DNA of 27,441 nucleotides from a virus. Taxonomy: Duplodnaviria; Caudoviricetes. Below, piece by piece: positions 4,119-27,439 of this stretch. Position numbers and translations under genes: made by a program. The stretch spans positions 1 to 27,441 of the IMG/VR virus record IMGVR_UViG_3300027850_000141, one strand, 5' to 3'. The notes beneath the pieces are model-generated. The model was not told the origin of the DNA and made no database searches. It saw only the letters and a program-made list of their open reading frames with translations. Numbering within the stretch: position 1 is the stretch's first letter; each line of letters starts with the position of its first letter.

Positions 4119-5273
4119 CTACCCTAGGATTCGGACGGCTAGCTGAGGACGGTTTAGCAGCACTCCCCACAGGCAATCTACGCTAAAAATCGTCTCTTTC
4201 CAACCGCGCTGAACTTCAAAGCGCAGTACTAGGCCAGACTGAGGATCGGGAAGAACCTCGAGGATATTGCCCGCCGCCGGAACGTCGATGATTGGCCGGG
4301 AAGCGAATGCAATGGCGTCTCGGTGAAATGCGAGGTTGGCAACGTGGGAGGAGGCGGTCGTCGTGACAAACGTGGCAACAGCGCCGTCTGCATAGTTTGC
4401 AGCTAGTCCGGGGCTAATGCCGATCGTGATCTCGTTGGCCGTAGGAGTAGCCGTCGCAACACTTGTCACCACGTAGGTTCGGATATTTCCAGGCAGGCTG
4501 AAAACATCACCGATTGCAGGGGCTACAGGGATTGCGCCAGATCCGTTGTCTAACACTAGACTTGTCGCTCCAGCCACCGCCGCCGCGTCAACTGCATAGG
4601 GTGCAACAGCGGTACTGGTGTGGCGCGGCACTTGCTGATCTTCGTACCAATCAAACCCTACAGCGCGGGTGATCTGGGCATCGCGCAACGTTTCGGACGA
4701 TCCCGATTCGTTGACCTTCTGCAAAACACCTAAACCGAGCGCGTTAGCATACGCAAACTCGTTGAGGATCATCCGGCGATCGCGGTAGGGTGCGAAGGCG
4801 GAAGTCAACATCCGCGATGCCTCTTGGGCTACGCCAGTGTTCACGCCGAATGGGGTCGTCCCGGCTACCCCTGTGACATTGTAGACCTGCCGATAAACAC
4901 TAAAGATCGACGAGTTGATACTACGACACAGCGCTTGTACGGCTTTTTCTACAGCGCGGTTGCGTGTGCCGTTCGCCACCTCAAAAAGGTCTTTGTCGGC
5001 CATTCTGAAGGTCGCGGCTTCAAAATTGTTTAGGTTTAACTGGCGCTTAACGGCCGTCACATCAGAGATAACAGCATCGGCGGGGTACGGGCCGGGCACG
5101 ACGGGAAAAGCTTGCATGTCACCCAATTCGGGGATCTCAATCATGCTCCCCTGGCTCGCAGCTTCCTCACTATAAAGGTTGTTGACTTGTGCCGGCATGA
5201 CACAATTCTCTCGAAGAACATCTAGGATCTGCGAGAGGATCTGAGGGATCAGGGCTTGTAATTGGTTGGGCAT
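4119..5273 (-). CDS. major capsid protein, P22 gp5-like (HK97 fold)
   Basis: 384 aa after the scaffold. Motifs GSMIEIP, GFDWYEDQQVP, NLAFHRDAIAFASRP and DCLWGV..RPQLAVRILG. Confidence 0.9.
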   Translation of the reverse strand: MPNQLQALIPQILSQILDVLRENCVMPAQVNNLYSEEAASQGSMIEIPELGDMQAFPVVPGPYPADAVISDVTAVKRQLNLNNFEAATFRMADKDLFEVANGTRNRAVEKAVQALCRSINSSIFSVYRQVYNVTGVAGTTPFGVNTGVAQEASRMLTSAFAPYRDRRMILNEFAYANALGLGVLQKVNESGSSETLRDAQITRAVGFDWYEDQQVPRHTSTAVAPYAVDAAAVAGATSLVLDNGSGAIPVAPAIGDVFSLPGNIRTYVVTSVATATPTANEITIGISPGLAANYADGAVATFVTTTASSHVANLAFHRDAIAFASRPIIDVPAAGNILEVLPDPQSGLVLRFEVQRGWKETIFSVDCLWGVLLNRPQLAVRILG

Positions 5274-14170: not shown

Positions 14171-14964
14171 CGTGTCACCCCGGCGCTAACCCACTCCTCT
14201 AGATCCTCCAATAACTCGATCCCGGTTGACCGATACACCCCACTGGTTTGGGGGATAACCTGCCGGGTGTAGCCGATCGCCCGTCCTAGCAACGCCTCTA
14301 ACTGTTCGAGCCGCGACAATAGGATTGACTCAGAATAGCCAACAGATTGAGGGACAGCGGTAGTCCGAACGTCTGCACGAACGGCGGCGGGCGGTTGCGT
14401 GATTAGGTCGCTGATTGGGATTCGCTGGATGCCATCGTCCGATGCGATCGTGACAGTACCCGATGAGCGATCGCCGTCGATGACGGTGCCTGAGATTGTA
14501 GGGGTAGAAACAGAGTCGCCGATCGCTAGCAACAGGGATTCCTGGTTAGGATGACGCCACGATTGCAGCGTTCTGACATTGACTTGGTGACCAGACTCTG
14601 CAACCGAAAGCGCCCGGTCAACGATACGCTGGTCGGCGGTGGCGAGTTGGTTGAAAGCTGCCTCAGTGATTGGCAGAATCTCAATTCCCTCAACATGGCC
14701 GAAGCGCTTGTAGAGGGCAATCAGCTTAGTGGCAGTCGCGGGGTCAATGCCCACGCAGACCTCTAACCATGATTCGAACAATCTCGCATCCGTTGTCCAT
14801 GTCTGCGCTCTCATCTCTAGCAGCAATTTACCAGCGTTCAACGCCGCGATCCGGCCTGTTTTCATGCACCCTTGGATCAGCCGCGCGTCTTGCTGTGCCT
14901 TGTCTCTACAGGCTGCGGGTAGGCTGGTATATTCAAAAATTTGCAGTTGAACCGAGGCATTCAT
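14167..14964 (-). CDS. DUF3102-like protein
   Basis: AGKLLLEMR...LFESWLEVCVGIDPATATKLIALYKRFG pattern. Confidence 0.65.
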   Translation of the reverse strand: MNASVQLQIFEYTSLPAACRDKAQQDARLIQGCMKTGRIAALNAGKLLLEMRAQTWTTDARLFESWLEVCVGIDPATATKLIALYKRFGHVEGIEILPITEAAFNQLATADQRIVDRALSVAESGHQVNVRTLQSWRHPNQESLLLAIGDSVSTPTISGTVIDGDRSSGTVTIASDDGIQRIPISDLITQPPAAVRADVRTTAVPQSVGYSESILLSRLEQLEALLGRAIGYTRQVIPQTSGVYRSTGIELLEDLEEWVSAGVTR

Positions 14965-15688
14965 ACGCAATTCGTTCCCGCCCTATTTGAATGTTTTTCT
15001 GCACTGTCTCGATCGATTGTCCCAACTCTAGCGCTATATCCTCAACAGTCCGCTCCTCAATAAAGTGCCGAACGCAAGCAAGTATCACAAGCGCGGGTAG
15101 CCTTTGGAGCGCGGCGGTAACGGGGGAAAATGCCCCCACCGTTTCCGCCTCTAGTTGTGGCGCTTCGGCTATGCAGTCTAGGGCGATCGGGTTTTGGCGT
15201 GCCCGCTCTGCCGCTATTTCTTCCCAGCGTTTAAGCGGAATCCCTAGACTCAGCGCAGCGTCAGACCGTGGGCGATTAATCCCTAAGCTGAGCCATTTGC
15301 GGTGTCTCGTTAGGACGCGAGAATACAGCGGCGCGTTAGTCTGATTCCTCTTACACCCCGTGTGTGGGTCGGGGGAGCGATCGCGGTGGTGACTGAGTTC
15401 GCCGTTGATTATCGGGATCGCGTAGCTCGAAAAGCTATAGCCTAGGCTAGGGTTAAACCGCTCCACAGCTTTGATCAAACCAACACGCGCAATCTGCAAC
15501 AGGTCGGGGTACGGGGTCGCCTGGATTTTGGCCGCTTTACTAGCTGCCTGAGTGGCAAGCCTGTCGTTAGCGACAATTATTTGATCGCGCAACTTGATTG
15601 ACGGAGCGCTGTGATATTGCGCCAACAACGCCGTTATTTCGGCACCTCGAACCGTTAACACTCTAGGCATAGGGCGGGGGTGGGACAT
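14933..15688 (-). CDS. phage-encoded alternative RNA polymerase sigma factor (SigF/SigB-like)
   Basis: Region 2 DLLQIARVGLIKAVERFNPSLGYSFSSYAIPIINGE and region 4 HTH TVEDIALELGQSIETVQK. ATG 15688 follows GAGGG. Confidence 0.85.
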   Translation of the reverse strand: MSHPRPMPRVLTVRGAEITALLAQYHSAPSIKLRDQIIVANDRLATQAASKAAKIQATPYPDLLQIARVGLIKAVERFNPSLGYSFSSYAIPIINGELSHHRDRSPDPHTGCKRNQTNAPLYSRVLTRHRKWLSLGINRPRSDAALSLGIPLKRWEEIAAERARQNPIALDCIAEAPQLEAETVGAFSPVTAALQRLPALVILACVRHFIEERTVEDIALELGQSIETVQKNIQIGRERIAYECLGSTANF

Positions 15689-15760
15689 GGTACACACCCT
15701 CAAATCTAGCACTACAGAACGAAACACCATAGGCACAATAGCGAAAACAAGGGCGGGCAG

Positions 15761-24973: not shown

Positions 24974-25230
24974 GGGCGATCGCCCGCAACGCTGAGCCTA
25001 AACTCCAAGATTTCCGCTTTGACCTTTTGAGCGTCAAACAGAACAATACAGGTTCCGTAATTGGTTTTACCCAGCGACCGCCCTGCCATGTTGTTGAGCA
25101 AAACGAGGGTCGGCTCAACTAGCTCCACCTTTAGCGACGGCTTCCCCGGCAGTCGGGGAAGATCATTGTCTTCCCATCGGGCGATCGCCGCATCCGTTAG
25201 CCTTTCGAGTTGACCTAGCGTCATGTTCAT
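24970..25230 (-). CDS. hypothetical protein
   Basis: ATGA/GTGA overlaps at both ends. Confidence 0.7.
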   Translation of the reverse strand: MNMTLGQLERLTDAAIARWEDNDLPRLPGKPSLKVELVEPTLVLLNNMAGRSLGKTNYGTCIVLFDAQKVKAEILEFRLSVAGDRP

Positions 25231-25499
25231 GTGCGATCGCCCCCTCTGTATTTGACCCCTAGAGCCTTTTCAATTGCCTGAACGACCTCTAGGCTTACCG
25301 AGTCGCCCTTACCCCTCATGAGCCGATACAGGTAACTTGTGGTGATGTCCGCCGCTCTAGCGATGGCCGCAACCCTTACGTTTCTGTTTTTTGCTGCCGC
25401 GATCTCGTCCGTTAGCCATTGCGGAAAATCCTCCGCATCACTATCAATAATCTGCCGAATCTTTAGCCCACTCACAATGTCGCCTCTTGAATATGTCAC
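25227..25499 (-). CDS. XRE/Cro-like HTH regulator heading the replication operon
   Basis: VAAIARAADITTSYLYRLMRG..SVSLEVVQAIEKALGV; AGGA RBS. Confidence 0.85.
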   Translation of the reverse strand: MTYSRGDIVSGLKIRQIIDSDAEDFPQWLTDEIAAAKNRNVRVAAIARAADITTSYLYRLMRGKGDSVSLEVVQAIEKALGVKYRGGDRT

Positions 25500-25514: not shown

Positions 25515-25565
25515 ATAGTAAGGCAATAAATATAGTTTGACAAGTTGCAAGTTTTAGGTCACTAT
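25515..25565. promoter_or_regulatory. divergent promoters sharing one -35 region
   Basis: Minus: TTGTCA (25538-25543)-17-TACTAT (25515-25520). Plus: TTGACA (25537-25542)-17-CACTAT (25560-25565). Confidence 0.7.
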
Positions 25566-25639
25566 TGGAGATAAGCAAAGGGCGACCGCCTCAAACGAAG
25601 CGACCGCCCGCCAAATTAACCCCTGTAGGAATCTCTATT

Positions 25640-25819
25640 ATGCCCCATCGGCTGAATGCATTTTCAAACAATCCCACCCGCCGCCGCTACAGTGTGGCGA
25701 TCGCCCTCGGGGTAGTGTTGGCCGTGATGGCTTACAGCCCCGCTAGCGCTAATCAGACTGGCTACGAGCCTCCGGTTGAGGGCGGGCCAGCGAGGACGCA
25801 GGGATCGGGCACCCGGTAG
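25640..25819 (+). CDS. 59-aa secreted peptide precursor (signal peptide plus NQTGYEPPVEGGPARTQGSGTR)
   Basis: AGGA RBS. Basic n-region TRRR, hydrophobic h-region, P-A-S-A cleavage site, Gly/Pro-rich 22-aa mature part. Confidence 0.75.
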   Translation: MPHRLNAFSNNPTRRRYSVAIALGVVLAVMAYSPASANQTGYEPPVEGGPARTQGSGTR

Positions 25820-25829
25820 GTAGGTTGGG

Positions 25830-25857
25830 GCGATCGCTTCTCTTGGGGGGCGATCGC
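25830..25857 (+). repeat. HIP1-based hairpin 3' of the peptide gene
   Basis: GCGATCGCTTC...GGGGCGATCGC with G-U pairs. Confidence 0.6.
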
Positions 25858-26653: not shown

Positions 26654-26702
26654 AAAAAAGCGCTGACCTGCACGGTTCACAACCCGCAGGCCAGCGCTTT
26701 TT
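26654..26702. terminator. bidirectional terminator between convergent operons
   Basis: AAAAAGCGCTGACCTGC...GCAGGCCAGCGCTTTTT. Confidence 0.75.
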
Positions 26703-27147: not shown

Positions 27148-27369
27148 TCACTTTGCGGACGGCTGAAATTTGACCCCCAGCGCGTTCTCTAACCTTGTCA
27201 GCACATCCTCTGAGATCGCCCCGTCAAGGTTGCCCGCCCGCAGCTTAGTTAGATAGCTCTCAGATAAGCCCGTGATGCGGCAAAGTTCTCTGAGGTGCCC
27301 GTAAGCCTTGATCCGTAGTCGTAGCCATTCCTTTAGTCCGGGGGCATGGCGCGAATAGGCAATATCCAT
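27148..27369 (-). CDS. XRE/Cro-like HTH regulator (second paralog)
   Basis: LRELCRITGLSESYLTKLRAG...ISEDVLTRLENALGV; AAGGAG RBS before ATG 27369. Confidence 0.85.
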   Translation of the reverse strand: MDIAYSRHAPGLKEWLRLRIKAYGHLRELCRITGLSESYLTKLRAGNLDGAISEDVLTRLENALGVKFQPSAK

Positions 27370-27392
27370 GAAACTCCTTAGTAACTGAAAAC

Positions 27393-27439
27393 AGAATAAC
27401 CCAACTCTCTTGACAATGCAACAATAAGAGTGCAATACT
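27393..27439. promoter_or_regulatory. divergent promoters
   Basis: Minus: TTGCAT (27416-27421)-17-TATTCT (27393-27398). Plus: TTGACA (27410-27415)-18-AATACT with a TG extension. Confidence 0.6.

Follow-up and report, generated by a model that had tools for sequence, protein, structure and literature searches.

What signal is encoded by a virus gene for a short, exported-type peptide that stands opposite a regulator gene, and whose receptor would such a peptide address? The question is raised by IMG/VR record IMGVR_UViG_3300027850_000141 (Duplodnaviria; Caudoviricetes), whose whole 27,441-base stretch is the window analyzed here. One of its open reading frames (ORFs; 25640..25819, +) encodes a 59-residue precursor with a signal-peptide-like N-terminus and a 22-residue tail. 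From the letters of the sequence, the initial annotation had proposed a secreted signal that informs lysis-lysogeny in the manner of arbitrium, mimics PatS/PatX, or hijacks a host peptide receptor. The last of these branches is the one now supported, by a host motif family, the linkage of that family to CHASE2 genes, the DUF928 proteins and a modeled complex of the tail with a CHASE2 domain. We consider it reasonably probable that the phage peptide is made early, exported, trimmed to 22 residues and binds a host CHASE2 cyclase as the host peptide would, thereby shifting cyclic di-GMP (c-di-GMP).

The phage peptide and its C-terminal motif

The precursor contains a basic RRR stretch, then a hydrophobic core (maximum 10-residue Kyte-Doolittle mean of 2.98) and an A-S-A sequence before N38. 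This arrangement gives a predicted Sec/signal peptidase I (SPI)-type signal peptide of residues 1 to 37 (25640..25750, +) and a predicted mature peptide of 22 residues (25751..25816, +), in agreement with the signal-peptide-plus-short-tail layout first read from the ORF. The call was made by rule-based hydropathy and the A-S-A site, a procedure other than SignalP, and export to the periplasm is likely on this basis. TRRR was not taken as a Tat signal, since the twin Arg is missing from the other mobile signal peptides. The tail ends in the 18-residue motif YEPPVEGGPARTQGSGTR (25763..25816, +), which is common to host peptides and DUF928 proteins and is predicted from modeling to be the CHASE2-binding segment. 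The peptide combines the two features of the host family, a hydrophobic N-terminus and a C-terminal [YF]xPPxxGxPxxxxG[ST]G[ST]R at the stop, and carries a DUF928-type Pro-rich ...GG[ST]R motif after the signal peptide. A ribosome-binding-site-like AGGA (25627..25630, +) lies 9 nucleotides 5' of the ATG.

The 59-residue protein belongs to no family in Pfam, PHROGs or NCBIfam. ESM Atlas returned no usable match, and tblastn against annotated phages and plasmids returned none, short queries being weak in such searches. The reading frame and, with one exception, each of the last 18 residues are preserved in six close homologs (85–91% identity), so that the C-terminal motif, singled out at the outset from one sequence, is conserved among relatives. 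DNA alignments of these relatives show the gene retained beside a changed upstream promoter region (in two relatives) and a changed downstream gene. Loose ends just 3' of the peptide gene were also seen in contigs from four DNA runs. Seven further small proteins, more distantly related, were found by profile search; they share the tail, in one case as two tandem copies.

A host peptide family encoded beside CHASE2 cyclases

The host family consists of exported-type small proteins ending in [YF]xPPxxGxPxxxxGSGTR. A degenerate motif-plus-stop scan of species genomes listed 120 loci of an estimated ~340; 110 of the 120 are ORFs that end in the motif at the stop. Among these 110, a hydrophobic segment is present in 107 (contig ends truncate two of the remaining three), and the record titles name cyanobacteria for 108. 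In a phylum sample, the motif matched in 29 of 301 genomes, 27 with a true stop; the final TRR of the pattern also admits TGG, and two of the 29 matches are non-stop. A reversed-pattern control matched in none of these 301 genomes and in none of 57 genomes of the Thermoleptolyngbya order. With the pattern spacing fixed, all motif counts are lower bounds.

Genomic neighborhood analysis links these motif-ending small ORFs to a sensor gene, as the initial annotation had envisaged: in 49 of the 60 loci with at least 4.5 kb of upstream sequence, the ORF is preceded by a CHASE2 gene in the same orientation. All of the upstream CHASE2 genes that were domain-tested (6/6) have the CHASE2-PAS-GGDEF architecture of the All1219/Dgc2 type, and the host gene order is the CHASE2-PAS-GGDEF cyclase, the peptide gene, then convergent nadB and psbU. 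An identity of the 735-residue upstream host gene as the adenylate cyclase CyaA was ruled out by its CHASE2-PAS-GGDEF domains. All1219 is one of the major diguanylate cyclases of Anabaena (PMC13075795) and is 50% identical to Dgc2 (PMC12267927); Dgc2 suppresses gliding and biofilm, and CHASE2 is described as a sensor domain that is widespread in bacteria and whose ligands are unknown (PMC10581220). The host peptide of Anabaena PCC 7120 is probably Asl1218, a 78-residue protein of unknown function (PMC8557916), an identification drawn from the order of the tags and the 78-residue length. One contig titled Acetobacteraceae (L094) carries a Nostoc-type CHASE2-peptide locus; it is probably misbinned.

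The phage tail falls close to one host subtype. Among the 57 Thermoleptolyngbya-order genomes, 10 encode the PPV[EQ]GGP form as a host gene next to nadB, and the closest host copies in that order are identical to the phage tail at 15 of 18 residues. The literature covered, with subscription papers and bioRxiv supplements outside it, contained nothing on the peptide family or the phage copy; within that coverage, the CHASE2-linked secreted-peptide family of the hosts is undescribed.

DUF928 proteins provide a second link to CHASE2. The initial annotation had placed a DUF928 motif near CHASE2 sensors, and this holds in a sample of 20 loci from four genomes: after the signal peptide, a script recognized a relaxed motif in 14 loci and inspection by eye in 19, and a CHASE2 match lies within 1.5 kb in 14 of the 20. 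A DUF928 gene beside a CHASE2 gene is also remarked on in the sole paper found to name DUF928 (PMC5587647). DUF928 (PF06051) and the host small protein share the motif with the phage peptide, and both host forms are exported-type proteins encoded beside CHASE2 sensors. In contrast, the phage form has no DUF928 domain (Pfam scan of the 59-residue protein) and almost no linker, and a domain scan of the window ORFs detects no CHASE2 or nadB gene, so that the phage gene stands neither beside a CHASE2 cyclase nor convergent with nadB. No printed function was found for DUF928 or for the host small protein downstream of All1219-type cyclases. The motif also occurs in tandem, as five copies in two of the 20 DUF928 loci (L162, L163), two copies in P0013 and a partial repeat in L210, which suggests a multivalent or processed ligand. 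In the 657-bp locus L139, a longer ORF resembles the end of a DUF928 protein, with the motif at its C-terminus instead of after the signal peptide.

Capture by phages and mobile elements

Five unrelated virus records carry the peptide, namely L001 and four of 29 loose-pattern viral matches. These four are signal-peptide ORFs; the remaining matches look like chance, with L010 unexplained. At L010:1792-1881 (−), a 552-residue ORF in a virus record without HIP1 ends in a motif-like tail, which represents either chance or a fused display form. In a separate related-locus search, the pattern search of viral contigs confirmed none of 88 matches. A metagenome scan listed 121 loci of ~150, among them the window itself (L230), which was excluded as an independent case; it revealed further lineages beside integrase, endolysin/tail, partition, helicase or XRE genes, not all of them proven phages.

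Across the mobile copies, the signal peptides are unrelated and the codons differ (TCN vs AGY for the Ser of GSG), while the motif is retained; the same motif recurs behind eight or more unrelated types of signal peptide, and its synonymous codons vary. In hand-picked sets, the linker before the motif has a median length of 10.5 residues in 14 mobile copies and 47 residues in 23 host copies. These comparisons point to repeated capture of the host motif, in minimized form, by unrelated phages and mobile elements. Neither CHASE2, AimR (NF038310) nor TPR_12 was found in the five other carrier virus records (16–94% complete), and the receptor is therefore likely host-encoded. Integrase genes or a provirus classification are found for some carriers. 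Among 13 mobile contexts, the peptide gene is the first gene divergent from an XRE gene in three (the window, L202 and L242), directly follows an XRE gene in two (L189 and L199) and lies elsewhere in eight.

Two variants stand apart. The virus record L016 encodes a basic RREGGGTR (DUF928-type) subtype beside a terminase gene (5004-5168, −), a capture separate from the GSGTR type. In L001 (4830-5063) and L009 (~280-509), a Cys pair lies between signal peptide and motif and possibly forms a small disulfide loop.

Structure model of the tail with a host CHASE2 domain

For the complex model, the C-terminal 30 residues encoded by the ORF were folded together with a periplasmic CHASE2 domain, that of a Thermoleptolyngbya All1219 orthologue (L174). 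The peptide alignment had 67 rows, the window and 66 of 73 candidates (six near-duplicate tails and L010 were dropped), and the receptor alignment had 63; invariance of the motif in the peptide alignment is circular, its rows having been chosen by pattern. The tail-CHASE2 complex scored 0.81, and the best of three controls 0.00. Of 157 solved complexes, 116 attain the mark used for this score, as do 2 of 215 mismatched pairs; these counts apply only roughly because the alignments were self-made. At least 71% of contacts agree between runs, partner pLDDT is at least 56, and the contacts with the lowest predicted error fall at Y-E-P, G-P and T-Q-G of the motif. Neither sequence nor fold searches yielded a solved relative of CHASE2 (a best E of 0.44 in the PDB profile search; no Foldseek match at E ≤ 0.001; a top VIA Z of 5.2), and recall of a like complex is for this reason unlikely. 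The tail is accordingly predicted, at the level of a model, to bind the CHASE2 domain.

A specificity rule relating CHASE2 N/D122 to peptide residue 24 was dropped, as there were exceptions on both sides. A host protein encoded at L176:3-3302 (G006:C107) has several TIR_2/ThsB-like domains fused to CHASE2, and is a possible peptide-gated immune or cell-death sensor.

Proposed mechanism and its weighing

In the proposed mechanism, the peptide would be expressed early from the promoter opposite the XRE gene. Export to the periplasm and cleavage after residue 37 would release the 22-residue peptide, whose 18-residue tail may then engage a host membrane sensor through its CHASE2 domain, the likeliest sensor being a diguanylate cyclase of the All1219/Dgc2 type. 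Host c-di-GMP would be shifted from outside the cell membrane, and the presumed gain for the virus would come by way of traits under c-di-GMP control (gliding, biofilm, cell size or superinfection), within the infected cell and possibly in neighboring cells of the filament. As a guess, we lean slightly toward agonist action, since the phage form preserves, unchanged, the GSGTR that is invariant at the C-terminus of the host peptide. A broader proposal is that [YF]xPPxxGxPxxxxGxG[ST]R is the long-missing CHASE2 ligand, part of a peptide-receptor language of cyanobacteria, captured and minimized by many unrelated cyanophages and mobile elements to reset c-di-GMP or to silence CHASE2-gated alarms in the cell and the filament periplasm; this is tentative, with a chance a little short of even.

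Several observations weigh against this mechanism. The CHASE2 synteny at 49 of 60 loci is mostly one inherited Nostocales arrangement rather than 49 events, and short forms of the peptide also occur at host-like loci (L077). In the closest hosts, the peptide gene lies by nadB but away from the CHASE2 cyclase (G006-G008, the three genomes with contigs read). The modeled receptor came from a stand-in genome picked for its similar peptide, the folded chain held eight signal-peptide residues to reach 30 residues, and the predicted interface is barely more conserved than the rest of the domain (p = 0.03 for 44 orthologues, 0.21 for all 63 sequences and 0.68 for 19 paralogues). The model covered one of the seven CHASE2 proteins of the stand-in genome; because of this, and because close cousins of the true partner also pass, the diguanylate cyclase is not singled out. 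CHASE2 cyclases of S. meliloti are reported to be responsive, by way of NsrA, to a protein from the plant (PMC13001267), which provides a precedent for protein-type input and also means that CHASE2 inputs need not be a peptide motif.

Binding to CHASE2 could serve another end if the key target were a different paralogue (a TIR-, kinase-, adenylate cyclase- or caspase-CHASE2 protein) and the peptide were a decoy, a form of counter-defense that dampens an envelope alarm or a cell-death system. The seven CHASE2 proteins of the stand-in host include a TIR_2/ThsB-like TIR-CHASE2, two kinases and two nucleotide cyclases, and the predicted interface residues R71, Q200, G236, D244 and G263 are 90–100% conserved in paralogues. 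EACC2-caspase proteins with CHASE2 have been proposed as self-activating stimulus sensors in a paper on bacterial apoptosis and immunity (PMC8195603), and an anti-host role would accord with the many unrelated mobile elements that have captured the motif. However, the phage tail is of the nadB-linked, diguanylate cyclase-associated GSGTR subtype (at most 15/18 identical) and not of the DUF928 RREGGGTR subtype, which only L016 has among the five viral-scan carriers; we regard the decoy as rather unlikely. Small genes move easily, and the peptide might be a passenger, a captured host fragment with no present phage function, but the recurrence of one motif under so many unrelated signal-peptide types and varied synonymous codons, together with retention of the gene in close relatives whose upstream promoter and downstream gene are swapped, makes this highly improbable.

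The two systems invoked in the initial annotation require a different reading of the same layout. In an arbitrium-like census, the peptide would accumulate with infection density, be read by host CHASE2 and its second messenger, and feed back on lysis-lysogeny. AimP of Bacillus phages (PMC6458997) is likewise phage-encoded, with a signal peptide and a short C-terminal peptide, and often lies near a regulator gene; the position opposite XRE in three of 13 contexts and right after XRE in two more, and the carriers with integrases or a provirus classification, agree with such a census. In contrast to the arbitrium hexapeptide, the tail comprises 18–22 residues (22 by the rule-based cleavage site), is shared with hosts, and would meet a host membrane receptor with no import step. 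Its gene is flanked by the XRE gene and a 155-residue gene of no known family rather than by AimR, the AimR profile and TPR_12 found nothing in the five other carriers, and the window holds no TPR or RRNPP receptor among the 41 ORFs scanned, as had been noted from the translations. Eight of the 13 contexts lie away from any recognized XRE gene, and unrelated phages share a near-host peptide, whereas private phage signals would be expected to diverge. Because there is no integrase or CI-type repressor among the 41 ORFs, a lysis-lysogeny switch is without support in this fragment. Membership in arbitrium was thus not borne out, and the census is unlikely. Re-entry into cells and inhibition of HetR, as a PatS/PatX mimic, is extremely improbable. 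Of PatX and PatS of filamentous cyanobacteria (PMC7761841, PMC12756182), PatX is a small protein with a Sec-type signal peptide and a Gly/Arg-rich active motif; the phage peptide, with its rule-based Sec signal peptide and Gly/Ser/Arg-rich C-terminus, resembles the exported PatX precursor (PMC12756182). However, RG(S/T)GR, reported as essential (PMC7761841), occurs in none of the 204 distinct motif-ending ORFs collected, the phage peptide included; the conserved PP-x-x-G-x-P half of the family lies outside that motif, and the host gene is linked to a CHASE2 cyclase and nadB.

For the preferred mechanism, binding of the phage peptide to a host CHASE2 cyclase, the nearest functional parallel is found in the YIP peptides of PB1-like Pseudomonas phages (PMC8085984), a likeness by description. 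YIP is likewise a small phage peptide that acts on a host membrane diguanylate cyclase (YfiN), and it raises c-di-GMP and cuts motility, an outcome of the kind proposed here. Whereas YIP is reported to act on the YfiN transmembrane helices, in what is described as intracellular interference, the phage peptide has a signal peptide, the tail of a host gene and a predicted binding site on periplasmic CHASE2. By analogy, it would work like YIP and is laid out like AimP, and we assign it to neither family. Phage peptides that steer host second-messenger signaling are of a known kind; the proposed ligand-receptor pair is undescribed in the literature covered. Phage capture indicates which 18 residues are likely to be active, and the genetically characterized cyclases Dgc2 (Leptolyngbya boryana) and All1219 (Anabaena PCC 7120) are ready targets for a synthetic peptide. 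If correct, the mechanism would represent phage imitation of a host extracytoplasmic peptide signal in a Gram-negative phototroph, and would offer a handle on cyanobacterial gliding, biofilm and cell size.

Regulatory sequences and surrounding virus genes

The virus record encodes capsid, portal, terminase, a SigF-like sigma factor, thyX, tmk, dnaB and rep. HIP1 octamers are a cyanobacterial marker, and the 65 in the window therefore indicate a cyanobacterial host; the virus likely infects cyanobacteria. As a host assignment, the capsid search gave only matches of 35% and 28–29%, in 2 of 57 Thermoleptolyngbya-order genomes. The sigma factor (14933-15736, −) has SigF as its best NCBIfam match, below the cut-off. 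SigF controls pili and motility in cyanobacteria, traits also governed by Dgc2.

The peptide gene is the first gene divergent from an XRE-family helix-turn-helix gene (Pfam HTH_3 by domain scan; 25227..25499, −) that heads the rep/dnaB replication operon. The divergent arrangement and the overlap of -35-like boxes (TTGACA at 25537-25542, +; TTGTCA at 25543-25538, −) were confirmed as first described, and only the minus-strand promoter passes the promoter scan. This candidate XRE-gene promoter (25515..25543, −) consists of TTGTCA, 17 nucleotides and TACTAT and matches 9 of 12 positions. The candidate peptide-gene promoter (25537..25565, +) was recognized by sequence as TTGACA, 17 nucleotides and CACTAT, the weak -10 having 3 of 6 consensus bases, and falls below the pass mark of the scan; the upstream region that contains it is replaced by different sequence in two relatives.

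Two hairpins frame the gene. The leader hairpin (25580..25609; z −2.0) is terminator-like on the minus strand and is kept in all three relatives that cover the site. The hairpin after the peptide gene (25830..25857, +), noted in the initial annotation, does fold (z −2.1; 5 of 200 shuffles), but it received no terminator call: it arises from two palindromic HIP1 octamers, has no T run and is absent in two of five close relatives, and a role as a dedicated terminator was rejected.

Elsewhere in the window, TTGACAA followed 0–2 bases on by TGCAA occurs at only two sites, 25537-25550 and 27410-27421, both in XRE-linked promoter regions and possibly a shared operator; a second XRE gene (27148-27435) adjoins the latter site. 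Between two convergent genes, a 17-bp inverted repeat (26655-26702; 94%) with A and T tails is likely a bidirectional terminator.
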